In this document: piece after piece, positions 3,389-29,062 of the stretch
How the letters are laid out: every line of letters starts with the position of its first letter
How positions within the stretch are numbered: position 1 is the stretch's first letter
Origin: an uncultured Verrucomicrobiales bacterium
GTDB lineage: Bacteria > Verrucomicrobiota > Verrucomicrobiia > Limisphaerales > UBA1100
Direction: 5' to 3'
Assembly: GCA_913042895.1 (NCBI GenBank)
Contig: CAJWMQ010000001.1
Span: forward strand, 1 to 54,045
DNA: 54,045 nt
Program-made: the position numbers and the translations under genes
The notes under the pieces: model-generated
Told to the model about the DNA's origin: nothing
The model's database searches: none
What the model saw: the letters and a program-made list of their open reading frames with translations, nothing else

Positions 3389-6312
3389 TCCTTGGATCCG
3401 CGGCGGTCTTGGGCGCGTTTCCGGGCGGCGGAGAGGGCATCGAAGGTGTTGCCGGTGTCGGAGAGATTCGGCGGGATCACTGGCGGCTGAGTATTGTCTT
3501 CCTCCAGCATGGGGGGGGCGACCACGGGTGGGGTGTTGGATTCCCGGTCGGCTCGGCGGCGTTTGCGTTTGGGGGCTCGAAAAGTTTTAGGTTCGTCGGT
3601 AGTAGTCGCGGGAGTCTCGGATTGGGTGACGGCAGCACGTGGGCGCAGGGTAGATTGGCCGTCTACAGTTTCTTCTGAAGAAGTCGCGCCGCGGCGGCGA
3701 AATTCAAAAAAGCCCGTACGGCGTTGGAATACTTCGAGCAGGAACAGGATCAAGCCGGCCAGCACCAGCCACAGGGAAAGCGGCACGTAACGAGGCTGCC
3801 GAGGTATGGCGGTCCACATATCTGCCAGATTCAATCGTTCGCGGCCGCCGGTGGTTTTGCTGAGGGCCGCGAGTGCTTTGCGTCCGCGGTCGGGTTGGTC
3901 CGGTGCAAACTCCGGCGAATACGGCAGGCACACCGGCGGCAGGCTTTGGCTGAGCGGCACGCCGGTTTGTGAGGTGAGGCTGGCCACGGCCCGCACGGTT
4001 TCCTCGCCTTCCAGAGGAATGGCGGCTTCAAGCAGGTCTGCGGTTTTCCAATTAAGCGTGCGGATCTCTTTGCGGAGAGGTCGGCCGGAGGTTTCGCGCA
4101 GGAGTTTGAGGCGTGGGGCCTGGGTAAACACTTCGCCCTGTCGAGTAGGATCAAGATGAAGTTGTACATGGCAAATGCCTTCGCGGATATCCTGAGTGAG
4201 CAGCATACGATCGGGCAACTGGCTTTGCTGACCGGCAGCCCAGCCGGAGAGCGTGGCGTAGAAATCTCCGGCTTGCGGCCATTGTGCTAAGTCTCCGGCA
4301 TAAGTGCCATCGGCTTCACCCGTAAAACAGGCCACCCGCCCGTTGCCTGCCTGCCAAAAGGCCACGATCGGCGCGCGGTATTCATCGCGAGTGAGCAGGC
4401 CCAGACTGGCGGCATCGCGCAAGTAGGTGAGATTGTAGCCGCCGACTGGTGGCGGTTGCCACGAGGCGGGGGCGCCCAAGGTGCTAAGCGCACCGGCCAG
4501 TTCGAGGGCGGCGGGTTCCTTGATGAAGGTGTTGCGCGCCACAGCAAAGGTGTCCTGCGCGAAGATGCGGGGAATCTCCCTGGGACGATCAGTGAAATAG
4601 ATGTTGCCTTCGCCGCGTTTAGCGATGTCCTCCAACAGTTTAGCATCCACATCGCTTGACTTGCCGAGGCCGATAACGCTGATGGAGATGCCGGCTTTTC
4701 TCATGGTGGCGATGAGGCGTTTGTAATCGCCGGGTTCCTCGGAATCCTGGGCATCAGAAAACAGGATGATATGTCGGTTGGCCGCCGAGGCTTTCATCAA
4801 CATTTGCGAGGCAGCCTTGAGAGCTTTGTACACGTAGATGCCACCGCCCATGGATTCGATCTTGAGAATTTTATTTCGGAAGAGGGCGTTTTGCTGGCGC
4901 TCGGCCGAGGCGAGATCCAGTACTGTATGCGGGGCGCTATCCACGGCGATCACACCGAATTCATCGGTGGCGGATAATAAATCGAGCACCTGCACGGTGC
5001 CGATGTTGGCGAGGTCCATTTTCGTTTTACCACCGGCCACCGGCATGCTCATGGAACCGGAACGATCGAGCACCACCACAATGGCCGTCTGCAGCTTGCG
5101 GATTTCATTACGGCGCTCCATGGAAACGGGCAGGAGTTTTTCTAGGGGCGAGCCGTAGTAGCCGCCCGGGGCATAGGATTTTTCGCCGCCGGTCACCATG
5201 AGCCCCGCGCCGGTGTCTTCCACCCAGGCGGCCAGAGTTTCCATACCGTCCTGACCGATATCGCCGGCCATCACATTTTCTAACACCACCGCGGACCACC
5301 GAGATAAATCGGCCAATGTCCATGGGCACTGATGCGGCTTGCGCGCGACGAGCGTCATGCCGCCTTTCACCATCAATTGCGCCAGCCCGGATTCCGCTCC
5401 GAAGTGGGATACTAATAAAAGGGGTTTGCGCCCGCGGACTTCTACCAGTGCGCGGGCGGTATTGTTTTCCGGGAACGCATCGCCCAGAGCAGTGAGGGTG
5501 GCAGTGGCGTTGGTATCAGCGTCAGGCGGGCGCAGGGTGAGACGGTAGGCGGCGTTGCCGGACAGTTTGGCGCGATCACGAAAGAGCAGGCGCGAAAGGC
5601 CGCGCGGCACGGCGCGTTCACCGCTGGATAATTCCTCGCCGTGTTTAGTTAGAGTGTAGCCGATCACTTGTTCGCGTGGCGAATGAATCCAGCCGCTGAT
5701 CATAAAGGCCTGACCGGGCAATACCTGAGCGGGCACCTGCAGATCACGCACGGCAAGATCCTCAGCCCGTGGTCGACTGAGCCAGCGATAATCAATACCA
5801 ATACCGCGGCCGGCGGCGCGCGCGGTCACGGCGTTGGGATCGCGGCCGGTCCAATGGCCATCGGATACCACCAGAATGCGGCCGGGATGCTCTGGCGGGA
5901 TGAGGGACAAGGCGGCCTCCAAGCCATCGGTCAGTCGGGAATGTTGCTGGTCGGCGGGGGATTGGAGGGTTTCTGTGGCTTGATCGCTCGGTTCCTGTTC
6001 GATAATGGTGCGGTCGCCAAAGCTGACCACGGCCAATCGGTCTTCGGAGCCCATTTCGCCATGGAGCGATTTCAGGACTTCCAACTGATCATCGGCGGCC
6101 TTGGGGGGCATGGATTCGCTGCGGTCGATCAACACCACCACCGTACCCTGTTGATCCTTCAACCTCATGGCCGGCTGGGCCATGGCCAGGACCAAGAGGA
6201 GAATGATGATAAACCGCACGAGGTTAAGGTCCCGCGTGGGCAGTCGCCACAGGTACATTGCTGCGGCCAGAGGCAGTAGGAGTAACAGCCAGATTGGTGA
6301 AAAGAAAATCAT
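3382..6312 (-). CDS. Large membrane-anchored BatA_N / double vWA-domain protein
   Basis: N-terminal IWLLLLLPLAAAMYLWR segment typical of the aerotolerance-regulator N-terminal (BatA_N) domain. Two MIDAS-type DxSxS motifs (VVVLIDRSESM and VVVLDRSGSMS). C-terminal TM segment followed by a basic, Pro-rich tail. Start taken at MIFFSP (6312), which forms an ATGA overlap with the upstream stop. Confidence 0.85.
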   Translation of the reverse strand: MIFFSPIWLLLLLPLAAAMYLWRLPTRDLNLVRFIIILLLVLAMAQPAMRLKDQQGTVVVLIDRSESMPPKAADDQLEVLKSLHGEMGSEDRLAVVSFGDRTIIEQEPSDQATETLQSPADQQHSRLTDGLEAALSLIPPEHPGRILVVSDGHWTGRDPNAVTARAAGRGIGIDYRWLSRPRAEDLAVRDLQVPAQVLPGQAFMISGWIHSPREQVIGYTLTKHGEELSSGERAVPRGLSRLLFRDRAKLSGNAAYRLTLRPPDADTNATATLTALGDAFPENNTARALVEVRGRKPLLLVSHFGAESGLAQLMVKGGMTLVARKPHQCPWTLADLSRWSAVVLENVMAGDIGQDGMETLAAWVEDTGAGLMVTGGEKSYAPGGYYGSPLEKLLPVSMERRNEIRKLQTAIVVVLDRSGSMSMPVAGGKTKMDLANIGTVQVLDLLSATDEFGVIAVDSAPHTVLDLASAERQQNALFRNKILKIESMGGGIYVYKALKAASQMLMKASAANRHIILFSDAQDSEEPGDYKRLIATMRKAGISISVIGLGKSSDVDAKLLEDIAKRGEGNIYFTDRPREIPRIFAQDTFAVARNTFIKEPAALELAGALSTLGAPASWQPPPVGGYNLTYLRDAASLGLLTRDEYRAPIVAFWQAGNGRVACFTGEADGTYAGDLAQWPQAGDFYATLSGWAAGQQSQLPDRMLLTQDIREGICHVQLHLDPTRQGEVFTQAPRLKLLRETSGRPLRKEIRTLNWKTADLLEAAIPLEGEETVRAVASLTSQTGVPLSQSLPPVCLPYSPEFAPDQPDRGRKALAALSKTTGGRERLNLADMWTAIPRQPRYVPLSLWLVLAGLILFLLEVFQRRTGFFEFRRRGATSSEETVDGQSTLRPRAAVTQSETPATTTDEPKTFRAPKRKRRRADRESNTPPVVAPPMLEEDNTQPPVIPPNLSDTGNTFDALSAARKRAQDRRGSKDQ

Positions 6313-10520: not shown

Positions 10521-11446
10521 TGAACCTTGCCCTCGGTAATATTCATGAAAATGTCTTCCAGATTGGCCTTCGTCTGGCGGAATTCGATAATACGATGCCC
10601 GCGCTGAATGATTAGGTTTAACACTTCAAAGGCGTTTTCTTCGGCGCCTTCCACATCAAATTGAATCTCATGCCCAGCTTGGCGTGGTTGATCGACGTGC
10701 GGCATTTCCAGAAGATCACGCAGTAACGAAGTTGGATCACTTAAGGCACGCAGGGCGTAAGTGAGTTTTTCCCTCCTTCGTCCAATCAGGCTGCCGGTTT
10801 CGCCGGCATCAAGAATACGACCTTGCTCAATGATCACAGCGCCATGGCAAATTTCTGTGAGTTCAGCGAGAATATGGGAACTGATAAAAATGGCTTTGCC
10901 CTGATTAGCTAAAAGTACGAGCAGTTCACGTAACTCAATGCGCGCGCGCGGATCAAGGCCGGCTGCCGGTTCATCAAGGATTAGAAATTGTGGATCACTT
11001 ACTAGTGCGCGTGCAAGACTGACGCGTTGTTTCATTCCCTTGGAAAGGGATCGCAGTTGCTTGTCTCGAATGCCAGCGGTGTTGGTGAATTCCTCAACGC
11101 TGAGTACGGCTTGTTCCCGGGCATCCCCGCGGAGACCGTAGGCGCGCGCAAAAAAATCGATATAATCATTCACTGTTGTGTCCCAGTACGCGCGGAGTTC
11201 GTCGGGCACAAAGCCGATGAGATGACGAGCACGTTCTGGGTCTTCCACCACGGAAAGATTATCTAGGCGCACATCGCCGCCGGTGGGTTCATCGAGCGTG
11301 GCCATGATACGCATGGAGGTGGTTTTGCCCGCACCGTTGGGGCCGACAAAGCCGAAGATCTGCCCGCTCTCAAATTGAAAAGATACATCATTGACAGCTA
11401 CGGTTTGGCCGAACTCCCGGCGGAGGTTTTCCACGATGATTCTCAA
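10517..11446 (-). CDS. ABC transporter ATP-binding protein
   Basis: Walker A GPNGAGKTT, signature LSKGMKQR, Walker B FLILDEP, H-loop SSHIL. TTG start overlaps the upstream stop (TTGA). Confidence 0.93.
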   Translation of the reverse strand: MRIIVENLRREFGQTVAVNDVSFQFESGQIFGFVGPNGAGKTTSMRIMATLDEPTGGDVRLDNLSVVEDPERARHLIGFVPDELRAYWDTTVNDYIDFFARAYGLRGDAREQAVLSVEEFTNTAGIRDKQLRSLSKGMKQRVSLARALVSDPQFLILDEPAAGLDPRARIELRELLVLLANQGKAIFISSHILAELTEICHGAVIIEQGRILDAGETGSLIGRRREKLTYALRALSDPTSLLRDLLEMPHVDQPRQAGHEIQFDVEGAEENAFEVLNLIIQRGHRIIEFRQTKANLEDIFMNITEGKVQ

Positions 11447-13275
11447 GGCGTCATTTCCTCCGGCGTTAGTACGCCGATCACGTGGCTCAAGGTGGTGTCC
11501 TTTGTTTTCCGGTGAGCCAGAGGGTTTTCCAGAAACGGAGAGCCGCGGTCAATGACCGCCCAGTAAGTGGACTCCGGCATCAAGCCAATGCTGAGGTACT
11601 CCCATTCCTTCTGGGCGGAGGATTCCAGCAATGTATTGGCGAATTCGTTGATTGTTGAGCGTTGAGGAATACCTGCGGTGTTAGGTCTGAGTGTGACTTT
11701 TTCGCCGGGCAAAATATCGGTGGCTGTAAAGAAATCGCCCCGAGCACTTCGTAGGGTAAGTTGTGAGAGAGGGGCCCCTAGGCTGTTAATGATTTTCGGT
11801 GTGCCGTTTTCCCAATCTATTTCAATACGTTTCTCAGTATGTTCACTCTTTCGTATCGCAAAATGTGTCGGTACTCTTGAGCTGGCCCATTTGCCAGTAA
11901 ATATCTGTTCGCCCCCATCAGTCCATGACACTGAGCGCCCTGACCCCGTGTCACGCTTCCCGCTATCTATCAAAGGCGTAACTTCAGAGTTTCCGGAGAA
12001 ATCCAATCGCCCAGGCGCGATGGGAGCATAAACGCCAATCCCTCCCAAAGTGGCGGCTTCCTGTTCCTTTTGATTTAGAATGGTCACAGACTCAGTGCGA
12101 ACGCGCGGGGTTACACCTTCACTAAAAATAGATACTACAAAAACCAAAGCGCTGGTCAGGAGAGAGATGACTGGCAAGGTCCATAAAAACCAAGCGCGAA
12201 CATCTTTCCGGTTAAGCAAATATAAGTTTATGGGGCCCGCGATTAAAACAAAGAGTGTCAGAAGACCGATCACCAAGCGTACTGGAGTTCTAACCCCATC
12301 GACCACCGGAAAGAAACTATTGAAATCTCGGTTGTTTCCCCCATGCCAATGATGTTCATCGTGAATAATTTCAACAGCTTCATTCAAATCACCTATCATT
12401 GGGATGGCCTTTTGATTGTTTTGAGGAGTGTCTGCTTTGAGTAACTTTAAGATGGAATTTCGGCTCTCATTGGATAAGGATTGGAAATGATCAACCAAGC
12501 CGAATCCAATAAAAAATTCGCGATTAAACCCATTGGATAATGTGGGCGGGTTGGTTTCCTTATCCCCAATGACAACTAAATGTCCACCTGTTCGCACCCA
12601 TCTTTGAATTGCTGAACGGGTATCTTTGTTTGCCTGATTCCATTCCTCCTCGTAGAGGATCAACATATCGTACGCACTATAGTCTAGCCAGTTTGTACCC
12701 CATTTTGACGTGACTCTATCTGAGGTGTGGAAGACAACATGAGGGTTGGCATGTGAGCCATGTCTGCCGTGTGAGCTATGTCTGCCAGGGGATACTCTTG
12801 ATAGAGCTGATTCTAGCGCGGGTTTATCAATTTTTCGACTGAGTAAAACAATGCGGGCCCGCTGCCATCCCGTGTTTTTGTGTTCCCCTAATTTATTACT
12901 TAGACCCATTTCTAAATAGCGTTCTTGTCCATTGCACTCAATAAGAACTTCATCATTGAGATAGCCGAAGGTCAGGGGAGGTTGGAGAATTGTAACCTCC
13001 CGGGTTCCCGGTAAAACGGTAAAGGATCGGGTGACCGAATTCAGACTGTGATCTTCAGCGTAGCTTGAGCTGGGTAGCTTGAAAGAAACACTCCGTTTAC
13101 CGGTGCCTGAGTGATGAATCGTAAATCTATGGGCCGTATATCCATGATAGATAGTTTGGTTATCTGTTTGAGCCTCAATATGCAGATTCAGCTTGGTGAA
13201 TGTGGCTGAGCCAGGGGCGGCCAAGACCGATACGGCAAGGTAATAAAATACACCAATAATGAGGAAGTAACTCAT
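11443..13275 (-). CDS. Uncharacterised 610 aa membrane protein
   Basis: N-terminal signal/anchor (IIGVFYYLAVSVLAAPG), two central TM segments (LVIGLLTLFVLIAGPINLYLL and WFLWTLPVISLLTSALVFVVSIF) and a His-rich GRHSSHGRHGSH repeat. ATGA overlap with the MoxR stop. No family recognised. Confidence 0.7.
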   Translation of the reverse strand: MSYFLIIGVFYYLAVSVLAAPGSATFTKLNLHIEAQTDNQTIYHGYTAHRFTIHHSGTGKRSVSFKLPSSSYAEDHSLNSVTRSFTVLPGTREVTILQPPLTFGYLNDEVLIECNGQERYLEMGLSNKLGEHKNTGWQRARIVLLSRKIDKPALESALSRVSPGRHSSHGRHGSHANPHVVFHTSDRVTSKWGTNWLDYSAYDMLILYEEEWNQANKDTRSAIQRWVRTGGHLVVIGDKETNPPTLSNGFNREFFIGFGLVDHFQSLSNESRNSILKLLKADTPQNNQKAIPMIGDLNEAVEIIHDEHHWHGGNNRDFNSFFPVVDGVRTPVRLVIGLLTLFVLIAGPINLYLLNRKDVRAWFLWTLPVISLLTSALVFVVSIFSEGVTPRVRTESVTILNQKEQEAATLGGIGVYAPIAPGRLDFSGNSEVTPLIDSGKRDTGSGRSVSWTDGGEQIFTGKWASSRVPTHFAIRKSEHTEKRIEIDWENGTPKIINSLGAPLSQLTLRSARGDFFTATDILPGEKVTLRPNTAGIPQRSTINEFANTLLESSAQKEWEYLSIGLMPESTYWAVIDRGSPFLENPLAHRKTKDTTLSHVIGVLTPEEMTP

Positions 13276-14312
13276 GCTTTTTGCAGGGACACATCGCTTG
13301 GTAAATCGAGGCCAGTTTCATCCAGTTCCTCCAGAAGATCAGTAAGCACGCGGTTAGCGTCTACTCGGTCGAAACGCGCCTGGTAATTAAGGATGAGTCG
13401 GTGGTTCATTACCGGCTTGGCCACGGCGGCCACGTCCTCGAAGCCGACGGTAGGGCGGCCATCGAGTAGGGCATTGGCACGGGCGGCTTCGCCCATGGCA
13501 ATGGCCGCCCGAGGCGAGGTACCGTATTGGACGTACTGTTTCACACTCTCTGGCGCCTCGGCATGATCCGGATGCGTGGCGGCCACCAGTCGTGCAATGT
13601 AGCCGGCCACTGGCTTGGGCAGGTAGATGCGTTCCATCACGGTAAAGAGATAATTCAAATCGTCCGCACTGGCCTGCCAGTTTGGCGAAGGAAGATCGCC
13701 TTGGCGACGTTCGGTGATAATACGCTGGAGCACATCGGCATTCACGGCATCAAACATGACTCGGAAGAGAAAACGATCGAGCTGGGCTTCGGGAAGGGGA
13801 TAGGTGCCTTCCATCTCGATGGGGTTTTGACTGGCGATCACAAAAAAGGGTTGGGGCAATTCGCGGGTTTGGCCGCGTAACGTGACTGAGCGTTCCTGCA
13901 TGGTTTCCAGCATTGCGCTCTGGGTTTTGGGCGAGGCGCGGTTGATTTCATCAGCCAACAGGATGTTGGTGAACACCGGGCCGGGTTCAAAAATCATTTC
14001 GCGTTGGCCGCTTTCGGTTTGCTGAAGAATGTGCGAACCGAGTACATCGCCGGGCATTAGATCGGGCGTGAACTGCACGCGGTTGAAATCGAGCTGCAGA
14101 ATATTGCCGATGGTGCGGACGAGGGCGGTCTTGCCCAAGCCTGGCAGGCCTTCGAGCAGAATATGGCCGCGGCTGAGCAGGCCGGTGAGCACGAGGCGAT
14201 GGAGTGATTCACGGCCCAGCAGACAACGGTCCATTTGTTCGCAGATTTGCCGGGTGATCGCGGTGGCGGGATCCAGTTCCGCCGGCTTAAGGAGAGCAGG
14301 AGAGTCACTCAT
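13272..14312 (-). CDS. MoxR-family AAA+ ATPase
   Basis: Walker A GLPGLGKT, Walker B LLADEINR, and SQNPIEMEGTYPLPEAQLDRF, which is typical of MoxR/MRP-type ATPases. Confidence 0.95.
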   Translation of the reverse strand: MSDSPALLKPAELDPATAITRQICEQMDRCLLGRESLHRLVLTGLLSRGHILLEGLPGLGKTALVRTIGNILQLDFNRVQFTPDLMPGDVLGSHILQQTESGQREMIFEPGPVFTNILLADEINRASPKTQSAMLETMQERSVTLRGQTRELPQPFFVIASQNPIEMEGTYPLPEAQLDRFLFRVMFDAVNADVLQRIITERRQGDLPSPNWQASADDLNYLFTVMERIYLPKPVAGYIARLVAATHPDHAEAPESVKQYVQYGTSPRAAIAMGEAARANALLDGRPTVGFEDVAAVAKPVMNHRLILNYQARFDRVDANRVLTDLLEELDETGLDLPSDVSLQKA

Positions 14313-14366: not shown

Positions 14367-15818
14367 TTATTCAGGCACGGACGGCGGATTCACGCCGGGC
14401 CGGGTGAAGAAGCGTTTCACTGCGGTGCGATGGCGGGGCAGTACGGGGGCCGCCAGCGCGTTGCCGCCGCCGGCTTGGGCGGTATTGAGGGCGCCTTGGC
14501 CGAGGATGGCTTCGCCGCCGGTCACTTCCGGCGCGGTGATGGTTACTCCCGCGAGCTTGGCCTGTTCTAGGGGCACGCTGAGTCCGAGTTTTTGTTCCTG
14601 AAATTCCGCGCCTTCCTCGGAGGATTCATTGCCGTACAACAATGGCGCATGGCCGGGGCCGCGGTTGGCGTCTCCGCGCCCGCCCAACTCCGGTCCGAGT
14701 TGCTCGAGCAATTCCTGAAAATCGCCGCCGTGCTGTTTCAGTAAATCCGCTAAAGGGCCGGGGTCAAGTCCACCCAGTTCGCCGGGTTGGAACTGGTCGG
14801 CTAGGTTTGGCGGGATGAGCCCTTTCTGGGCCAATTGCCTGGCCAGATCGAGGAGTTGGTCCTGATTATTTTCCAGCGCTTCTAAGAGCTGCTTCAGTTG
14901 TTCCGCATCCGGGCCCTCGCCTTGACCAAGTTGTTTGAGTGCCTGTTGCATGGCCTTTTGAAGTTCGGGCGGCAGATTGTTGGGGTCTAGTGCGCCGTCC
15001 TGGTTCAATTGATTCATCAACTGGCCGAGTTGCTTGAGGCCTTCTTCAAACGCTTTTTGGTCTTCCAAACCTTTGGGCAGCATCTCCAGCGCTTTGCCGA
15101 GTAGTGAGGCTTCGTTGAGGGCGTTGAGTTTGGACAAGGCATCCTCGGCTTGTTGCTGGGCGATTTGTTCGTTGGTGTGTAGCAGTTGATCAAGCGCTTC
15201 CCAAGTCTTGGATGGGTTTAAGCCAGAGGCCTGCTCGGCGATGCGGTCGAGTTCCTCGCGTTTGTTTTCCGCTTGTTGCGGGGAGAGGATGTATTCGGAT
15301 TCGAGCACATCAATCTGCTCATGCAGATCCTCCACTTGCTGGCTGATCTCCAAGGGCGGATCGGCGATTAGGCGCGCATACTTTACCGGCAAGAGCAGTG
15401 CCGTAATGAAAAACACCAAGGCCAATATGGTGCCAAGCCACGCGCTGCCGCTGTGCCATTGCACGGAGGGCAAGGCGAGCGAACCGGACCGGGCTTCCCA
15501 CGAACGGGTGTCCACCTCGGCGGCGGCCATCACCAAGCCGCCCGCGTGGTTTTGCCGGTCGAATGCTGCTCGTAACTGTTTGGGATCTGGTCGGCGTTGG
15601 CTTTCGCGATACCATGCTATCGCCACGAGCAAGGCCCACGAGGCCAACAGGTATTTCCACCAGTCTCCCGGCAGATCGCTGGTGAACCGAATGCCAAGTA
15701 CGACTACGCCGGCAATCATCAGCCAGAGCGCGCTCCAGCGGAGCACGGACCGATATATCATCATCGCGTGCACGCGACGCACAAACGATTGTAATGCCGG
15801 ATCAATCGTGCTCATCAA
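14367..15818 (-). CDS. Membrane-anchored coiled-coil protein (Q/L/E-rich)
   Basis: 483 aa. Three N-terminal hydrophobic segments, then a long Q/E/L-rich low-complexity helical region. No family recognised. Sits 54 nt upstream of moxR on the same strand. Confidence 0.65.
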   Translation of the reverse strand: MMSTIDPALQSFVRRVHAMMIYRSVLRWSALWLMIAGVVVLGIRFTSDLPGDWWKYLLASWALLVAIAWYRESQRRPDPKQLRAAFDRQNHAGGLVMAAAEVDTRSWEARSGSLALPSVQWHSGSAWLGTILALVFFITALLLPVKYARLIADPPLEISQQVEDLHEQIDVLESEYILSPQQAENKREELDRIAEQASGLNPSKTWEALDQLLHTNEQIAQQQAEDALSKLNALNEASLLGKALEMLPKGLEDQKAFEEGLKQLGQLMNQLNQDGALDPNNLPPELQKAMQQALKQLGQGEGPDAEQLKQLLEALENNQDQLLDLARQLAQKGLIPPNLADQFQPGELGGLDPGPLADLLKQHGGDFQELLEQLGPELGGRGDANRGPGHAPLLYGNESSEEGAEFQEQKLGLSVPLEQAKLAGVTITAPEVTGGEAILGQGALNTAQAGGGNALAAPVLPRHRTAVKRFFTRPGVNPPSVPE

Positions 15819-18521: not shown

Positions 18522-19319
18522 TTACGCTTCGCTGCGTCCCGGGCCTTCAGGCCTTGGACTGCGCGGGTTGGAAGGGCCACCCGGCCTACCCTGGCCTGGT
18601 CCTCCTGGGCGGCGGAAGTCATCGCGTCCCCCTTGGCCTGGTCCTCCAGGGCGGCGGAAGTCATCGCGACCCCCTTGGCCTGGTCTTCCAGGGCGGCGGA
18701 AGTCATCGCGACCCTCTTGGCCTGGTCCTCCCGGGCGGCGGAAGTCATCGCGACCCCCTTGGTTGCCGGACTGGCGTGGGTACATCTCATCGCGCGTAAT
18801 TTTCCCGTCCCGATTGCGATCCAGTTGAGAGAGGGCCTTGGAGGCATTTTTTAGTTCATCGGCTGAAATCACACCATCGCCGTCTGCATCGAGTACTGTT
18901 GCCAATGGGTTACGAGGAGGTTGCCCCCCAGGGCGTCCAGGGAATCCGCCTTGACCGGGGCCGCCAAATCCGGGGCGATCCCCTTGGCCCGGACCACCGG
19001 GACGAACGCCTCCGCCGCCCTGACCGGGACCACCGGGACGACCTTGGCCAGGACCGCCTGGGCGACTCTGGTTAGGGTCACCCGCACCGGGTCGGCCGGG
19101 TGCGGTTTGATTGCCTTGTTGTTTACGGAAAAACTCCTGCATCTGTTCGCGGCTGGGCCGTTCCTCGTCGTCAATTTTTCCGTCGCCGTTTTTATCGAAA
19201 TTTTTGAGGAATAATTCCCTGATACTGGATTGGCCGCCGGGGCGTCCCTGTGCGTGAGAATCCGTGGGTGTGAGTAACAGGCCTCCGAGAATGGCAGGCA
19301 AAAGGTAGTGAGCTTTCAT
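18522..19319 (-). CDS. Secreted EF-hand calcium-binding protein with G/P/R-rich tandem repeats
   Basis: Signal peptide. Three EF-hand loops (DKNGDGKIDDEE, DADGDGVISADE, DRNRDGKITRDE). Four copies of GGRDDFRRPGGPGQ plus many RPGGPGQG-type repeats. Confidence 0.85.
   Translation of the reverse strand: MKAHYLLPAILGGLLLTPTDSHAQGRPGGQSSIRELFLKNFDKNGDGKIDDEERPSREQMQEFFRKQQGNQTAPGRPGAGDPNQSRPGGPGQGRPGGPGQGGGGVRPGGPGQGDRPGFGGPGQGGFPGRPGGQPPRNPLATVLDADGDGVISADELKNASKALSQLDRNRDGKITRDEMYPRQSGNQGGRDDFRRPGGPGQEGRDDFRRPGRPGQGGRDDFRRPGGPGQGGRDDFRRPGGPGQGRPGGPSNPRSPRPEGPGRSEA
18593..18760. repeat. 4 x 42 bp near-identical tandem repeat inside the EF-hand gene
   Basis: Unit ggcctggtcctcctgggcggcggaagtcatcgcgtccccctt at 18593, 18635, 18677 and 18719, with 1-3 mismatches per copy. 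In frame (14 aa per unit). Confidence 0.9.
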
Positions 19320-19450: not shown

Positions 19451-20464
19451 ATGGATTTTATGATGAACCGATTAGGAATTTTGCTAGGTTGCCTAACGGT
19501 CTTGTGCCAATGGAGCCCAGCGGCGGATCAAATTGCTTGGTTCGGCACTTGGAAAGGCGGCTTGGCCGAGGCAAAGCGCACAGGGAAGCCTATTCTGCTG
19601 ATCTCTGCTGCGCCACAGTGCCACAATGTGCCGGGTGTATGGTGACCAGGCAAGACGAGCATGGACAGGAGTTTCCTGGCCGATCAAGACGTTATCGCCG
19701 CTTCTCGGAAGTTCGTTTGCATTCGTTTGGCTACCTACGAGAACGCCGATGAAAACGAAGTGCTCAAGGGTGTGTTTGCCCCTGGAGGAGTTCTGCAAAA
19801 CACAGTATTTTCCCTAATGAGCCCGGATGGGCGCACATCATTGGTGCGAGCCGGTCGCAGTCCGGCATGGGCTTTTGGTGGGCAAGTGGGTCGCGGGATT
19901 CATCAACAGCCGGCTGAGGTAATCGGTAAAATGGCGCAAACTATGGAAGCCATTGCTTTGGCGTATCCGGGCAAAGATAAACCCGTTGGCCGGGTGCCAC
20001 TGCCGTACCTCGCGGACCTTAGACTGGCCCTGAATGTTGCGGCAGCTGACCGACTGCCCTTGGTGGCAATATTTGGCAACGCCGAGCAGCGCAAATTGAT
20101 GGAACAGCGACTGGAACCCTTAGCTTGGGCTGATGAATTTCTAGGACGCGCCCTGTATGTGCCGGTAACCCAACAGGACGAATTCAAGTCGATCACCGGG
20201 TTGAAAACTCAAGCCGGTTATGTAGTGATCCAGCCCGATATCTTTGGCCTAAAGGGTAAGGTGATTCAGGAAATTTCACTCCTGTCCACAGCCGCTCAGC
20301 TTAAGCAATCTCTGTCCACAGCCGTAGGACGGCATCAACCCAGCACCTTGACCTATGAACAACACCGGAGTCAGGGCGCAGCCGCGGGACAACGCTGGGA
20401 AAGCAAAACCCCCAATACCGACGGGATTGGCCGAAGCCGGTTCGGTCCGCGCCCGCGCCCTTAA
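19451..20464 (+). CDS. Secreted thioredoxin-fold protein interrupted by one in-frame TGA (19643-19645): candidate selenoprotein or pseudogene
   Basis: ORFs 19451-19645 and 19661-20464 share one frame (offset 210 nt). The joined reading is signal peptide, ...AEAKRTGKPILLISAAPQCHNVPGVW-[TGA]-PGKTSMDRSFLADQDVIAASRKFVCIRL.... This follows the Thioredoxin_7-like pattern (KP-hydrophobic strand, W-C-x-x-C, M-D-R-x-F), with the TGA at the first Cys position. Confidence 0.5.
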
Positions 20465-20467
20465 GGC

Positions 20468-21769
20468 ATGTGGCGCGCGATTGGAATTTTGGCATATGGG
20501 CTAGCGGGATCGTCAGGATTTCTAATTGCTGACACGGATCGGTCGTCCCGCCCGAACATCGTCCTGCTGGTTTCCGATGACATGGGTTGGAATGATGTGG
20601 GGTATCACCAGAGTCGGATTTCTACGCCGCATATCGATCAACTGGCACGGGACGGCATTCGCTTAAACCGATTCTATGTGCACCCTGTTTGTAGTCCCAC
20701 CCGAACGGCGTTGATGACCGGCCGGTTGCCGGCGCGCATGGGTATCACGGGCGTGATCGGGCGGGCGGGTAGCGTGCCCAAGGATGAAGACTTTTTGCCG
20801 GAATGGATGCATCAGGCGGGTTATCAGACTTTCATGGCCGGAAAATGGCACCTTGGCATGATCGATCGCGCTAGTCTTCCCAGTGCGCGCGGTTTTGATC
20901 AGTTTTTCGGTTTCTATGGTGGCGGCATTAACTACTACGCCACGGTTGGATCCCGCCACTCCGGTTGGTATCGTAACGGCCAGTCGGCAGCCGTAGAGGG
21001 GTACTCCACGGATCTGATTGCGTCCGAGGCGATTGAACGCCTGCAAAGGCGGGACAAGAACCGGCCGGTGTTTCTGTACGTCGCCTTCAATGCTCCTCAT
21101 CCGCCGGCCCAGGCACCGGAGAGGTTGATCCAGAAATATCAGCGGCTTGGCTTCACTGGCCGGCGCTTGAGTCATGCCGGTGCGATAGAGGCCATGGACG
21201 CCGCCATTGGCCGAATCCTGGCTACTCTGAAATCCGAAGGCATGGAGCGTGACACGCTTGTCATGTTTTTTTGCGATAACGGTTCCGGCTTAAGTCGTCG
21301 AATGCCACAGTTCGAGCCGGGTCAACTTAAATTGCGCGGCGGCAAAGGCACGTTGCAGGAGGGCGGGATCCGCGTGCCGGCTGTGATGCGTTGGCCAGCG
21401 ACCATCAGGTCTGGTGCCACGACAGATCAACTCATGGCCGTTCAGGACTTGTTACCCACATTGGCGGCCTTGGCGGCAGTTCCTCTGAAACCCGCCAAAC
21501 CGTTGGATGGCGTGAATTGTTGGCCGGCTATTCGGGATGGGAAATCCATCGAGCGATCACCCGTGATTGTGGGCGGAGAAGGTGCCGGTTTTGCCGTACT
21601 GGATGGAAAGTGGAAATTGATCTGGGACTCTGTAGGCTTGAACCTATTCGATATTGTACGAGACCCGATCGAGGCGCATGATCTGTCGGCTGAGCAACCG
21701 TTAAAAGCGGCGGAATTGGCCGATCGGTTAAGGCCGATTCATCAGGCAATGAAGGAACTAAATCCATGA
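20468..21769 (+). CDS. Sulfatase (arylsulfatase family, formylglycine-dependent)
   Basis: [17 protein letters not shown] and the C-x-P-x-R motif [13 protein letters not shown]-terminal signal peptide. Confidence 0.93.
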
Positions 21770-22926
21770 CCAAAAATACTGTAATCATAGGGGTCGCGAT
21801 TGTGGCGGGCATTATCTCCCCTGAAACCGAGGCTCAACCGAAGGGCCGTGGAGATGCTTCTCGCGAGGAGGCCCTCAAGGAGCCGTTTAAGGGTGTCTAT
21901 TATCTGGATGTGCCGCCGGCCAACTTGTTTCCAATCCGCAAAACCGGCGTCAGCACAGAATCAGTGCGGCAGGCGGCCAAGGCGTTTTTGGTAAGTCTGA
22001 CTCCGGCAGATCGAAAAAAAACCCTATTTGGCGTTGATGACTTGGAATGGCGTAAGTGGGACAACCGCCATCGTTACGTGCGGCAGGGCAAGGGGTTTAA
22101 TACGATGACCGAAGGACAACGCGAGTTGGCGTTTAACTTGTTGAAAGCCAGCCTCAGTGCCGACGGACTAAAGCAGACGCGCGACATCATGAAGCTCAAC
22201 GGCACACTGGCGGAGTTGACGCAGCGCTTTGAGGAGTATGGTCAATGGTTGTATTGGATCACGATCATGGGCGAACCCAGCGCCACCAAACCGTGGGGCT
22301 GGCAACTCGATGGACATCACGTGGTGATCAATTACTTTGTGCTCGGCGATCAGGTAGTCATGAGCCCGGTCTTCATGGGGTCTGAACCGGTGAAAGCCGA
22401 AGGCGGTCAATTCAAGGGGGCGGAGGTGTGTCAGGCTGAGCAGGACAAGGGGCTGAGGTTCCTCCAGATGCTCGATGCCGAACAGCGGGCAAAGGCAATC
22501 GTGGATGATGCCAAGGGCCCAACTAATAATATCGGCGAGGCGTTTCGCGACAATCAGGTGCTCGATTATATGGGTATTCGCGGCGATGCCTTAACGGCTC
22601 CGCAACAGGAGAATTTACTCGAATTGATCGGCGTGTATGTGGGGCACATGGCTGAAGGCCACGCCAAAGTCAAGCTGGCGGATGTGAAGAAACACATGGA
22701 CAGCACTTATTTCGGATGGCTGGGTGGGACGGGGAAGGAGAGCGTGTTTTACTATCGCATCCAGAGTCCCGTGATTCTGATTGAGTTTGATCACCAGCGC
22801 CCGATTGCCCTAGCTCGGTCACGTGTCCCCACGCGCCAGCACATCCACACTGTAATTCGAACACCAAACGGGAACGATTACGGCAAAGACCTACTCCGGC
22901 AGCATTACCGGCAGAATCACCGTTAA
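21766..22926 (+). CDS. DUF3500 domain protein
   Basis: Blocks [15 protein letters not shown] and [17 protein letters not shown] match my recollection of DUF3500. ATGA overlap with the sulfatase stop. Confidence 0.8.
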
Positions 22927-25576: not shown

Positions 25577-28500
25577 ATGGCTAGGAAATCAAAGAAGACT
25601 GAACCATCGGCAGATGGGCCGATGAAATTGATGGCGGCCAACCGCAGCGAGATCGCCATCCGCATTTTCCGCGCCGCCACGGAGATGAACATGCGCACCG
25701 TGGCAATCTACGCGCAGGAGGATCGTCTGGCTGTGCACCGTTTTAAGGCGGATGAAGCCTATCTGGTGGGTGTGGGCAAGGGCCCGGTGGGCGCGTATCT
25801 GGATATTGAGGGCATCGTGGAGATGGCCAAGGAGCGCGGGGTGAATTACATCCATCCCGGCTACGGATTTCTGGCGGAGAACGCTGACTTTGCTGAGGCT
25901 TGCGCCAAGGCTGGGCTTACCTTTGTGGGGCCACGCCCGGAGTTGTTGCGCAAGATGGGTGACAAGACCGAGGCCCGCGCGTTAGCCAAGGCGGCTGGTG
26001 TGCCGATTTTGCCCGGCACCGATGACCCCATCACCACCCGCGCCAAGGCGGTTAAGGTGGCCAAAGACATTGGGTTCCCGCTGATCATCAAAGCGGCCTT
26101 TGGCGGCGGCGGACGCGGCATGCGTGTGGTGCACAAGGCCAAGGATCTGGAACGGTTGCTCGATGAAGCTCGCGGCGAGGCCGATCGGGCGTTTGGTAAT
26201 CCCGCAGTGTTCCTTGAGAAATACGTACCGCGTGCCAAGCACATTGAGGTCCAGATTCTGGGTGACCAACACGGCAACGTGTTGCACCTGTACGAGCGCG
26301 ATTGTTCCGTGCAGCGCCGGCACCAGAAGGTTGTGGAAATCGCCCCCAGCGTGGCGCTGGATGAAACGGTGCGCAGCGAGCTTTGCACAGCGGCCGTGGA
26401 ACTGGCTCAGCACATCAAGTACGACAACGCCGGCACCATGGAGTTCCTATACGACATGGATTCCAAAAAGTGGTACTTCATCGAGATGAACCCACGCATT
26501 CAGGTGGAGCACACGGTTACCGAAGTGGTGACCGGAATCGACTTGGTGCGGGCGCAGATCCAGGTTGCGCAGGGACAGAAACTGCACGGGGACGTAATGC
26601 AGTTGCCCAAGCAAAAGAACGTTCCGTGTGTCGGTCACGCTGTGCAGGCGCGGGTGACCACGGAGGATCCAGCCAATAATTTCACGCCCGATTATGGCCG
26701 CATCATTGCTTATCGTTCGGCGGCCGGGTTCGGGCTGCGACTGGACGGCGGTCAGGGCGATGCGGGCAGTGTAATCACGCCGTTTTATGATTCGCTGCTG
26801 GTCAAGATCACCGCCAGCGGCATGAGCTTCCCAATTGCGCTCGACCGCATGGACCGCGCGCTGAAGGAATTCCGGATTCGCGGCGTGCAGACGAACATTC
26901 CGTTCATCGAAAACGTAATCAAGAATGAGACCTTCCGCACGGGGCAGGCGAGTACGACGTTGATCGATACCACGCCGGAACTCTTCACCTTCCGTCCGCG
27001 CCGTGATCGCGCGAACCGGTTGCTCAAGTACATTGGCGACGTGGTGGTGAACGGCAATCCGCAGGCCAAGGGCTTCGAGGTGAAGGAGCCGTTTGCGCCG
27101 ATCGCGGAGCCGGACTATAACGGCGATCAGGATCCGCCCGCGGGCACACGCCAAATTTTGCTGGAGCAGGGTGCGGAGAAATTCGCCACCTGGGCTCGCA
27201 AGGAAAAGCGCCTGCTGATTACCGACACCACCCTGCGCGACGCGCATCAAAGCCTGTTTGCTACGCGCATGCGCACAGAGGATATGCTCAATGCTGCGGA
27301 CGCCATCGCGCGCCGCACGCCGGGCTTGTTCAGCCTCGAGATGTGGGGCGGAGCGACGTTTGACACGGCCATGCGTTTCCTGCGCGAGGATCCGTGGCAA
27401 CGCCTGCGTCAACTGCGCGAGGCCGTGCCGAATATCTGTTTCCAGATGCTCTTCCGCGGCTCCAACGCGGTGGGGTACTCCGATTATTCGGACAACGTCG
27501 TGAAGGCGTTCGTGAAACATTCGGCCGAGAACGGCATGGATATTTTCCGGATCTTTGATTCGCTCAATTACCTGCCTAACCTCAAGGCTGCGATGGAGGC
27601 CGTGCGCGAAACACACGCTGTCTGTGAAGGCACGATCTGTTACACGGGTAATATCCTTGACGATCAACGCGATAAATATCCGCTCGAGTACTACGTGAAG
27701 CTCGCGAAGGAACTCGAGAAGATGGGCGCCCATACCTTGTGCATCAAGGACATGGCCGGACTGTGCCGTCCGTACGCCGCACAGAAGCTGGTGAAAACCC
27801 TGCGGCAGGAGGTGGGTTTGCCGATTCATTTCCACACGCACGACACCAGCGGCGTGAATGCCGCTTCCGTGCTCAAGGCCACCGAGGCCGGCGTGGACAT
27901 TGCCGACTTGGCCATTGCGTCCCTATCCGGTTCCACCAGCCAGCCGAATCTCAACAGCGTGGTGGCCGCGCTGGATCATACGCCGCGCGAGACCGGTTTG
28001 GATCTCGGTACACTAAATGAATTTTCCGATTACTGGGAGGCCGTGCGCCGTGTCTACGCGCCGTTTGATACGGGCCCACGCAGTGGTATTGGAGATATTT
28101 ACGAGCACGAAATGCCCGGCGGCCAGTACACCAACCTGCGTGAGCAAGCCGAGAGCATGGGTCTTGGCGCGCGCTGGAAGGAAGTGGCCCGCACTTACGC
28201 CGAGGTCAACGATCTCTTTGGCGACATTGTGAAGGTAACCCCCTCTAGCAAGGTGGTGGGCGACATGACGATGTTCCTCGTCACTCGCGGCATTAAACCG
28301 GCGGATGTGGTGAACCTCGAGCCTGGCGCTACGCCGTTCCCGCAATCGGTTATCGACATGATGAAAGGTCGCCTAGGCAAGCCCGTGGGCGGCTGGCCGC
28401 GCAAGGTGCAGAAGGTGGTGCTCGGAAAACAGAAGCCGCTCAAGGGCCGACCCGGTGCCGATCTCAAGCCGCTAAACCTCGAGCGCACGCGCAAGAAGGT

Positions 28501-29062
28501 GGAAGAAGAGATCAGTCGCAAGGTCAACGACGATGATTTGCTCAGCTACCTTATGTATCCGGAGGTGTTCAAGGACTATAACAAGTTCCGCCGCCAATAC
28601 GGTGATGTGTCCGTGCTGCCCAGTTCAACTTACTTTTACGGACTACAGCTTGGCGAGGAAATCACTGTGGACATCGAGGAAGGTAAGACGCTCTACATCA
28701 AACTCATCAATGTCAGCGATGCCGATGAAGAAGGCGTGCGCACGTTAACCTTCGAGTTGAACGGATACCCCCGCGAAGTGGAGATTGCCGATGCCTCCAT
28801 GAACGTGCTGGAAAGGGCTATTGCCAAGGCTGATTTGGGTAACGACCTCCATGTCGGCGCGCCCATCCCGGGCATCATCACCGAGGTGGCCGTGGGCATT
28901 GGCGCCAAGGTGGCCAAGGGCGACAAGCTGTTGACCATGGAGGCTATGAAAATGCAGACGACCGTTTATGCCGCGGCCGATGGCGTGGTGGATAAGATCA
29001 ACGTCGGTATCGGCGAATCGGTCGAAAGCAAAGACCTCATCATGGAATTGCGCGAAGCGTAA
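25577..29062 (+). CDS. pyc: Pyruvate carboxylase
   Basis: Biotin carboxylase (EMNPRIQVEHTVTE), carboxyltransferase (DTTLRDAHQSL, HFHTHDTSG) and biotinyl domain (EAMKMQT), about 1150 aa in total. The true start may be the ATG at 25622 (MKLMAANRSEIAIR). Confidence 0.97.
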   Translation: MARKSKKTEPSADGPMKLMAANRSEIAIRIFRAATEMNMRTVAIYAQEDRLAVHRFKADEAYLVGVGKGPVGAYLDIEGIVEMAKERGVNYIHPGYGFLAENADFAEACAKAGLTFVGPRPELLRKMGDKTEARALAKAAGVPILPGTDDPITTRAKAVKVAKDIGFPLIIKAAFGGGGRGMRVVHKAKDLERLLDEARGEADRAFGNPAVFLEKYVPRAKHIEVQILGDQHGNVLHLYERDCSVQRRHQKVVEIAPSVALDETVRSELCTAAVELAQHIKYDNAGTMEFLYDMDSKKWYFIEMNPRIQVEHTVTEVVTGIDLVRAQIQVAQGQKLHGDVMQLPKQKNVPCVGHAVQARVTTEDPANNFTPDYGRIIAYRSAAGFGLRLDGGQGDAGSVITPFYDSLLVKITASGMSFPIALDRMDRALKEFRIRGVQTNIPFIENVIKNETFRTGQASTTLIDTTPELFTFRPRRDRANRLLKYIGDVVVNGNPQAKGFEVKEPFAPIAEPDYNGDQDPPAGTRQILLEQGAEKFATWARKEKRLLITDTTLRDAHQSLFATRMRTEDMLNAADAIARRTPGLFSLEMWGGATFDTAMRFLREDPWQRLRQLREAVPNICFQMLFRGSNAVGYSDYSDNVVKAFVKHSAENGMDIFRIFDSLNYLPNLKAAMEAVRETHAVCEGTICYTGNILDDQRDKYPLEYYVKLAKELEKMGAHTLCIKDMAGLCRPYAAQKLVKTLRQEVGLPIHFHTHDTSGVNAASVLKATEAGVDIADLAIASLSGSTSQPNLNSVVAALDHTPRETGLDLGTLNEFSDYWEAVRRVYAPFDTGPRSGIGDIYEHEMPGGQYTNLREQAESMGLGARWKEVARTYAEVNDLFGDIVKVTPSSKVVGDMTMFLVTRGIKPADVVNLEPGATPFPQSVIDMMKGRLGKPVGGWPRKVQKVVLGKQKPLKGRPGADLKPLNLERTRKKVEEEISRKVNDDDLLSYLMYPEVFKDYNKFRRQYGDVSVLPSSTYFYGLQLGEEITVDIEEGKTLYIKLINVSDADEEGVRTLTFELNGYPREVEIADASMNVLERAIAKADLGNDLHVGAPIPGIITEVAVGIGAKVAKGDKLLTMEAMKMQTTVYAAADGVVDKINVGIGESVESKDLIMELREA

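Follow-up and report, generated by a model that had tools for sequence, protein, structure and literature searches.

We examined a 54,045-nucleotide stretch of contig CAJWMQ010000001.1 (assembly GCA_913042895.1), from an uncultured Verrucomicrobiales bacterium, and refer to this whole stretch as the window. Its forward strand carries, at 19451-20464, two open reading frames (ORFs) in the same frame, one of 64 aa (19451-19645) that closes with the TGA at 19643-19645 and one of 267 aa (19661-20464), separated only by that TGA and the five sense codons CCA GGC AAG ACG AGC, which encode PGKTS. Read through, the two give a single product with a signal-peptide-like N-terminus followed by …KPILLISAAPQCHNVPGVW[TGA]PGKTSMDRSFLADQDVIAASRKFVCIRLATYE…. 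This layout had led to an earlier proposal, here called the original prediction, that the TGA encodes selenocysteine (Sec) in a secreted thioredoxin-fold protein; its coordinates proved correct when re-derived, and reading through the TGA gave us the same product. We infer that 19451-20464 is very probably one gene for a selenoprotein, with UGA 19643-19645 as its Sec codon, on the basis of the conservation of the TGA, the existence of Cys homologs, the covariation of a downstream hairpin, the linkage of the gene to the sel operon in relatives and a fold obtained by modelling. The features of the reading frame are these:

19451..20464, + strand: complete gene of the predicted selenoprotein, of 337 codons and a stop codon, in which a single UGA (Sec65) is in frame, from ORF structure, tblastn across the TGA and alignment A3
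19451..19525, + strand: signal-peptide-like N-terminus (MDFMMNRLGILLGCLTVLCQWSPAA), read from the sequence
19643..19645, + strand: UGA, predicted Sec65, with an invariant TGG (Trp64) just before it and TGA at 80/80 orthologous sites
19646..19660, + strand: five codons, PGKTS, from the UGA to the next ATG, translated and not an intergenic spacer, with P-G-K kept

A possible alternative start is the ATG at 19460, as in the close orthologs, whose sequence opens with MMKRFG.

A TGA within a gene might mean that the genetic code of the organism is reassigned, with TGA read as sense in all its genes, although nothing besides the in-frame TGA speaks for this. Among the 31 long ORFs of the window 14 end in TGA, 14 in TAA and 3 in TAG; one of the TGA stops is at the ATGA junction where, downstream, the sulfatase gene meets that for DUF3500. 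No other credible in-frame-TGA gene was found in the window, where the remaining cases are shadow ORFs and gene overlaps. TGA is therefore an ordinary stop elsewhere, as the original prediction had maintained, and the code reassignment that it considered unlikely is excluded by this stop-codon usage; the probability that we would leave to it is negligible.

Conservation of the TGA across the family

A scan of genome collections identified 80 loci, mostly in metagenome-assembled genomes (MAGs) of Verrucomicrobiota and Planctomycetota, at which tblastn alignments continue through the stop. TGA is present at 80/80 homologous sites in 79 loci and is never replaced by TAA, TAG or a sense codon; in this count one locus (L011) has two tandem copies, while another (L028), which lies at a contig end and misses its N-terminal part, gives no site. 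The proteins of the TGA-bearing loci are 39-97% identical to the window protein, and the flanks are kept on both sides (…RTGKPILLVSAAPHC-x-x-V-x-G-x-W-U-P-G-K-x-x-M-D-R-S-F-L…), the Trp before the TGA being invariant. Recurrence of the TGA on this scale is far beyond chance.

The same observations dispose of a simpler account, also raised by the original prediction, in which the gene is a pseudogene with a single nonsense lesion or the product of a sequencing or assembly error at 19643-19645. One in-frame stop certainly looks like such a lesion, and the relative P0073 (locus L082) has a one-base variant, TTA, at the corresponding position. However, the same TGA occurs in ~80 independent assemblies, down to 39% identity and with purifying selection on both sides, and an identical 267-aa part is encoded on 16 contigs from different samples. 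Because the recurrence is identical in so many independent assemblies, we regard a pseudogene or read error as excluded, and the earlier alternative as effectively refuted; any residual chance is vanishingly small.

In protein databases the family is found in pieces. A protein search returned hundreds of homologs, from 97% to ~40% identity and almost all of 255-272 aa, which span only the last 75-79% of the query and start at the Met after the TGA. A search with the N-terminal part returned matching fragments of 62-130 aa, all of them ending …PGVW, and in alignment A4 the N-terminal and C-terminal fragment sets abut with a six-residue hole between them. One MAG illustrates the split annotation with consecutive NCBI tags, H8E27_04100 (63 aa) and H8E27_04105 (265 aa). 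When 1.84 billion cluster representatives were searched exhaustively with a profile, 1082 clusters (at 50% identity) matched with E≤1e-3, and 332 with E≤1e-30; ~146 (~97%) of the best 150 of the 1082 representatives start exactly at the Met after the TGA, from which it follows that Sec forms dominate the family.

Taken literally, the public annotations describe two separate genes, a 64-aa secreted peptide that ends at the TGA and a second protein that starts at ATG 19661. Gene callers everywhere do give N-fragments ending …PGVW and C-fragments starting MDRSFL, and the Met at position +6 is nearly invariant (67/70). Against this stands the behaviour of the five intervening codons, which are under amino-acid selection. 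The Pro after the UGA is encoded by CCG in 43 cases, CCC in 12, CCA in 8 and CCT in 3, the Gly of PGK by GGC (43), GGT (17), GGG (6) and GGA (3), and the Lys by AAG (45) and AAA (25); since P-G-K is kept while third positions drift freely, the segment from TGA to ATG is translated and is not a spacer. In addition, the modelled thioredoxin fold described below spans the TGA, with strand β1 before it and helix α1 after it; the C-fragment would have no signal peptide; and Cys-form homologs are single ORFs. The invariance of the Met is itself explained by the conserved hairpin to which the ATG belongs, and the Cys-form protein P0111 has Ile where Sec forms have Met after PGK. Two genes are for these reasons very improbable, and we continue with a single selenoprotein gene.

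Full-length homologs that lack the TGA show which residue belongs at its position. Cys occupies the TGA column in P0074, P0111, P0364 and P0369 (WCPGK) and in P0500 (FCPGY), and L081, the gene of one of these Cys forms, has a TGC codon there. Comparison of this column had been suggested by the original prediction, and these homologs bear it out: the column holds Cys or TGA, and a gap was never seen. P0073 (L082:4442-5701) has Leu at the column; as its TTA codon is one base from TGA and the downstream hairpin is intact, we take the Leu to reflect a recent Sec-to-Leu mutation or a sequencing error.

The distribution of the family has some minor peculiarities. Locus L011:453-2615 comprises two tandem paralogs (TGA at 669 and 1791), each with its own selenocysteine insertion sequence (SECIS) hairpin, followed by a sulfatase gene. 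The MAG labels of L045, L073, L021, L075 and L048/L063 lie beyond Verrucomicrobiota and Planctomycetota (Vulcanimicrobiota, Armatimonas, Omnitrophota, Alcaligenaceae, Candidatus Kuenenia), and the TGA and hairpin are present in all of them; some of these labels may be errors of binning or naming, and others may reflect genuine transfers. A search of viral contigs for relatives of the protein found none.

The predicted SECIS hairpin and the Sec-decoding machinery

A hairpin that is embedded in the coding sequence follows the UGA:

19663..19681, + strand: predicted bacterial SECIS hairpin, GGACAGGA-GUU-UCCUGGCC, from covariation, RNAalifold, frozen codons and loss in a Cys form

It consists of a 5' arm (19663-19670), a loop (19671-19673) and a 3' arm (19674-19681), so that an 8-bp stem begins 17 nt past the UGA, and its form across the family is GGACAGGA-GUU-UCCUG(G/U)CC. 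The segment ATGGACAGGAGTTTCCTG (19661-19678) is nearly invariant at the nucleotide level, and the adjoining codons are free at synonymous sites. In an alignment of 70 distinct sequences, 94.8% of cells are paired and compensatory double changes affect 4/8 pairs, as in the change from G-C to A-U seen in eight sequences. These pairing and covariation values were reached by 0/500 shuffles, slid-partner controls were 30-58% paired, and RNAalifold, unaided, returned the same helix. The stretch at 19663-19681 is thus a stem-loop after the UGA with a G(U) apical loop that is kept by selection.

Codon usage within the hairpin is correspondingly frozen when set against the background elsewhere in these genes. 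After the UGA, Arg +8 is AGG in 53/55 cases (background 6%), Ser +9 is AGT in 67/67 (16%), Phe +10 is TTC in 65/65 (50%) and Leu +11 is CTG in 61/69 (32%); the eight exceptions at Leu +11 are all TTG, and 7/8 pair with an A on the opposite arm. In the Cys-form gene L081 the same codons read CGG GAC TTC CTC and the hairpin is destroyed. Two other hairpins, put forward in the original prediction, did not withstand the 70-sequence alignment: CCAGG/CCTGG is paired in 82% of cells, a value equalled by 24/500 shuffles, and GGCCGAU/AUCGCC in 65% of cells. Both were rejected; conservation singles out a third, that at 19663-19681.

A group of loci labelled Gemmataceae, Planctomycetaceae or 'Kuenenia' (L044, L048, L050, L056, L059, L061, L064 and L072) has a tRNA-Arg(TCT) gene ~600-800 nt upstream of the TGA and an N-terminal extension of ~130 aa rich in Gly, Lys and Pro. 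In the hairpin of their copies the Arg codon AGG is replaced by Lys (AAG), and CUG has become UUG in compensation.

The Sec-decoding genes themselves are found beside the family gene in some relatives. In the Verrucomicrobiales loci L015 and L016, whose orthologs are 64-65% identical and share the synteny of EF-hand gene, family gene, sulfatase and DUF3500, the family gene directly follows a complete set: L016 has, in order, tRNA-Sec (4472-4567), a SelD-type AIR-synthase-family protein, SelA, a transglutaminase-like protein and SelB, and then the ortholog, and L015 likewise has tRNA-Sec, SelD, SelA, transglutaminase and SelB immediately upstream of the ortholog. A SelB fragment lies 3.4 kb upstream of the family gene in the planctomycetal locus L039. 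In MAG ANT-88 the ortholog is on JAPKDK010000026 (L018), and selD-selA-transglutaminase is on another contig, JAPKDK010000119. Four SelA homologs were traced by contig; one is in MAG ANT-88, which bears a 66%-identical ortholog, and none is in the MAGs with 91-97% identical copies.

The operon is common in marine Verrucomicrobia and has the same composition there (L016:4472-9782 and L015:925-6232; also L093-L110): tRNA-Sec, selD in a Cys form (GAGCGCK), selA, a transglutaminase-core gene and selB, with the transglutaminase-like gene consistently between selA and selB. For a Rhodopirellula-like planctomycete, a sel operon that includes a transglutaminase-core gene is on record, and the similar arrangement was there called unique (PMC4807772).

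Just upstream of tRNA-Sec at L095:3790-4005 (also at L096, L098 and L101) is a SelW-like (Rdx) gene whose motif is C-A-T-U and of which the annotation shows no more than a 33-aa C-terminal fragment. The SECIS of this gene, GGCCGUCA-GUU-UGGCGGGCC, has an 8-bp stem and an A-GUU-U apex and begins 14 nt past its UGA. SelW-like genes and the window family thus occur in the same kind of genomes and share a SECIS type, with the stem 14-17 nt past the UGA, although the likeness is confined to the recoding signal, the SelW-like protein being an unrelated, small, cytoplasmic CxxU protein. Since a gene beside the sel operon has the same 8-bp/A-GUU-U hairpin, the window hairpin is evidently of the type that the local SelB reads.

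These findings bear on another explanation, that the UGA is subject to programmed read-through with a standard, near-cognate amino acid such as Trp or Cys, the hairpin stimulating read-through and not acting as a SECIS. Some read-through signals do have this signature, a conserved UGA and a hairpin after it. Nevertheless, homologs without the UGA have Cys in this column, which lies at a redox-active site; in L015 and L016 the gene directly adjoins the sel operon; and the hairpin is the same as that of the SelW-like selenoprotein gene of related bacteria. We know of no established bacterial mechanism in which a hairpin makes ribosomes read UGA efficiently as a standard residue throughout a protein family, and we allow this explanation only a very small chance.

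For the selenoprotein gene, the expected course of decoding is the one usual for a bacterial SECIS. SelB·GTP·Sec-tRNA(Sec) would be brought to the ribosome by the mRNA hairpin at 19663-19681, and UGA 19643-19645 would be read as selenocysteine during translation. The product would consist of a signal peptide, a Thioredoxin_7/DsbDγ-like domain with Sec65, a redox-inactive thioredoxin-like domain, a C-terminal motif and a basic tail.

Domain architecture, active site and related families

The protein features that follow were placed with alignments and with a structure model of the Cys homolog P0074 (AlphaFold2, alignment A4; mean predicted local distance difference test (pLDDT) 81, predicted template modelling (TM) score 0.69):

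19538..19759, + strand: Thioredoxin_7/DsbDγ-like thioredoxin-fold domain, spanning the UGA (Pfam PF13899, Foldseek)
19619..19621, + strand: Cys57 (TGC), in a nearly invariant column of A3 (kept by at least 90% of members), 8 residues before the Sec
19718..19720, + strand: Cys90 (TGC), an invariant column of A3 (32 members, Cys forms among them), within the FVC(I/V)R strand
19997..20338, + strand: second thioredoxin-like domain, without a Cys motif, 'b'-like in the terms of protein disulphide isomerase (PDI) (P0074 model, Foldseek; mapped via alignment A1)
20363..20422, + strand: C-terminal motif H-x3-G-x3-G-x2-W-x4-P-x-T-D, with near-invariant columns H305, G309, G313, W316, P321, T323 and D324

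Export is predicted for the protein, to the periplasm or beyond, because of its signal-peptide-like N-terminus, and of the 68 full-length orthologs that were reconstructed, most have such a segment, hydrophobic and signal-like, at their start. Domain 1 of the P0074 model has a strand at 163-168 (PILLVA), a low-confidence loop that holds C172 and C180, and a helix at 182-190 (GKREMDRDF). C180, the equivalent of the Sec, lies directly before helix α1, and in the model this N-cap is the canonical position of the nucleophile, in agreement with the original prediction that the TGA falls on the nucleophilic Cys of a thioredoxin fold. Residues 286-394 form a second β-α-β-α-β-β-β-α unit, with pLDDT above 90 and no redox Cys motif. 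Foldseek aligned both domains with PDI, ERp57, ERp44 and QSOX (E about 1e-5, 260-300 columns), and single-domain matches were DsbDγ (TM ~0.6, root-mean-square deviation (rmsd) 3.7 Å), DsbH and AGR2. As modelled, the two thioredoxin-like domains have a PDI a-b-like layout, one catalytic and the other non-catalytic.

The active site departs from the usual dithiol. Neither C-x-x-C nor U-x-x-C is present; the window protein has U-P-G-K, the Lys at +3 (Lys68) is invariant in A3 (32 sequences, two of them Cys forms), and the more distant Cys form P0500 has C-P-G-Y. The original prediction had seen a Lys at the second Cys position and a Cys 8 residues upstream, both of which stand, with the correction that the site is not a degenerate CxxC but C-x7-U-P-G-K throughout the family, and that another invariant Cys lies in the strand that follows. 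Cys57 is the candidate resolving partner within this motif, and Cys90, which maps to strand 204-206 of the P0074 model, is a candidate alternative as a resolving or structural Cys.

The strongly conserved C-terminal motif is followed in nearly all members by an Arg/Pro-rich basic tail; in the window, motif and tail together occupy 20363-20464. No counterpart of the motif was identified in known thioredoxin-fold proteins.

Some results weigh against our interpretation. No sel gene and no tRNA of any kind, tRNA-Sec included, was detected in the 54-kb window, to which the search was confined (tblastn with the SelD, SelA and SelB of L016; ARAGORN). Taken by itself the window hairpin is weak (-6.8 kcal/mol, one A·G mismatch), compared with -11.9 for the Planctomycetota consensus; the mismatch, at the third pair, is common to all Verrucomicrobial copies, including those beside the sel operon. 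Folded alone, the 101-nt region 19630-19730 is no stabler than its shuffles (z = +0.45); such single-sequence folding is uninformative, and the hairpin is visible only by comparative analysis. An Rfam scan of 19600-19760 (E≤10) matched no bacterial SECIS family, its hits (mir-4875, bxd_2) being noise. With Cys put for the stop, residues 30-103 of the window protein match PF13899 with E=4.9e-4 and 20.6 bits, which is below the gathering score of 27; as 30/32 family members nonetheless match at E<0.01 (best E 1.4e-7), we describe the window protein as a divergent relative of PF13899 and not as a clean member. Finally, the β1-α1 loop that holds the Cys57 and Sec positions has pLDDT below 50, and the Cys57-Sec65 geometry is not reliably modelled.

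The nearest structural relatives are the Thioredoxin_7 (PF13899), DsbDγ and DsbH proteins, which share the …KP-strand…W-[C/U]…MDR..F..D..V…FV.V… pattern and the exported location, DsbDγ being the best single-domain structural match. The window family differs from them in having U-P-G-K instead of C-x-x-C, an 8-residue insertion with a conserved Cys before Trp-Sec, and a C-terminal extension of ~230 residues with the second thioredoxin-like domain. A tandem of active and inactive thioredoxin folds is likewise present in the PDI family (ERp44 with CRFS, AGR2/AGR3 with CxxS, and the PDI a-b pairs), and the likeness to ERp44, AGR2 and AGR3, which have one nucleophile and no CxxC partner, suggests mixed (seleno)disulfide chemistry. 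However, those proteins belong to the eukaryotic endoplasmic reticulum and use Cys, not Sec; their sequence likeness to the window family is marginal, and global superposition is poor (rmsd ~17 Å), so that domain order alone is comparable. A PDB profile search gave no PDI match at E<1, only marginal matches to AGR3 (top, E=0.07) and TXNDC12, and the site is UPGK and not of the CGHC type.

Known selenoprotein families come close at certain points. NF041383 (VPGUxxT type 2, OS_HP5 of ocean-sampling studies) is a thioredoxin-like selenoprotein of similar length (a 287-position model) with VPG before the Sec, but its motif is VPG-U-xx-T and that of the window family VPG-xW-U-PGK-T (VPGVWUPGKT in the window); the model gives P0074 14.2 bits against a cut-off of 275, leaves the window protein unmatched and matches 2/32 members at E<0.01. 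NF041199 (Trx7/PDZ) places Sec on a Thioredoxin_7-type domain and is the top NCBIfam match, locally over the Trx7 part, with 13.9-18 bits against a cut-off of 300 and 12/32 members at E<0.01; the Pfam search found no PDZ domain in the window family. The NF041199 motif is given as CxxU in a 2026 review table, and the window family, by contrast, has Sec first and Lys second. The family falls below threshold for every selenoprotein model of NCBIfam (June 2026), and neither the 119 prokaryotic selenoprotein families of the 2026 review table nor the Global Ocean Sampling (GOS) selenoproteome tables include one with this motif or architecture. An unnamed GOS family listed as 'Unknown' (15 sequences, 0 Cys homologs) may be the same family.

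Possible roles and gene neighbourhood

With less assurance than we attach to the coding of Sec, we think it rather probable that the protein is an oxidoreductase or isomerase. Because the second CxxC position is Lys (U-P-G-K), it is probably a single-selenol thiol-disulfide oxidoreductase or isomerase. In such a scheme the clients would be periplasmic or secreted proteins whose disulfides or oxidised thiols are attacked by Sec65, and the mixed selenenylsulfide would be resolved by Cys57 (C-x7-U) or by Cys90.

A more specific proposal, which we regard as unlikely, is that this is an uncatalogued and almost wholly Sec-dependent family, found mainly in Verrucomicrobiota and Planctomycetota, whose C-x7-U-P-G-K site and PDI-like domain serve a particular extracytoplasmic task. 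One candidate would be to keep the CxPxR cysteine of exported Cys-type sulfatases reduced, or to chaperone these enzymes before formylglycine is formed; it comes to mind because the gene is probably co-operonic with a Cys-type sulfatase in Verrucomicrobia, and is of low probability because that linkage is absent in Planctomycetota. Another candidate is the handling of selenium or sulfur species, suggested by the position of the gene directly after the sel operon in some genomes.

No class of selenoprotein is commoner than that with a thioredoxin fold, and new families come to light regularly. The present finding extends a known theme, that of thioredoxin-fold bacterial selenoproteins with a SECIS in the coding region; what is unusual in this family is its C-x7-U-P-G-K site, its PDI-like second domain and its near-exclusive use of Sec. 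To our knowledge no thioredoxin-fold selenoprotein combines U-x-x-K with a partner Cys eight residues before the Sec and another, invariant Cys in the strand next to it. One family would be added to the prokaryotic selenoproteome, and hundreds of sequence clusters now deposited as two unrelated hypothetical proteins would be merged, pair by pair, by the Sec codon into an exported redox enzyme. As ~97% of the top representatives are Sec forms and Cys forms are very few, the gene should be useful for recognising Verrucomicrobia and Planctomycetes of the sea and of fresh water that depend on selenium. Its compact, well-conserved SECIS within coding sequence, together with the unusual site, would also provide a clean system for the study of SelB recognition outside E. 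coli.

Two genes follow closely on the same strand:

20468-21769, + strand: Cys-type sulfatase (CSPTR motif), from a Pfam match and the motif, after a 3-nt gap from the selenoprotein gene
21766-22926, + strand: DUF3500 protein, from a Pfam match, with a 4-nt ATGA overlap with the sulfatase gene

DUF3500 has no known function. The trio of selenoprotein gene, sulfatase and DUF3500 is syntenic in the Verrucomicrobial loci L001-L019 and not in the Planctomycetota loci, and is likely to be an operon of the Verrucomicrobial subclade only. Because its conservation stops short of Planctomycetota, the neighbourhood gives no general clue to function.

Upstream, a divergent gene for an EF-hand repeat protein (18522-19319, - strand) is a conserved neighbour in Verrucomicrobia, and in L015 and L016 the whole sel operon sits between it and the selenoprotein gene. 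Further away in the window are a MoxR-type AAA ATPase (13272-14312, - strand), beside ORFs without a Pfam match (11443-13275 and 14367-15818), and a pyruvate-carboxylase-like biotin enzyme (25577-29062, + strand); the genes of the MoxR region and the biotin enzyme appear to be unrelated to the selenoprotein.

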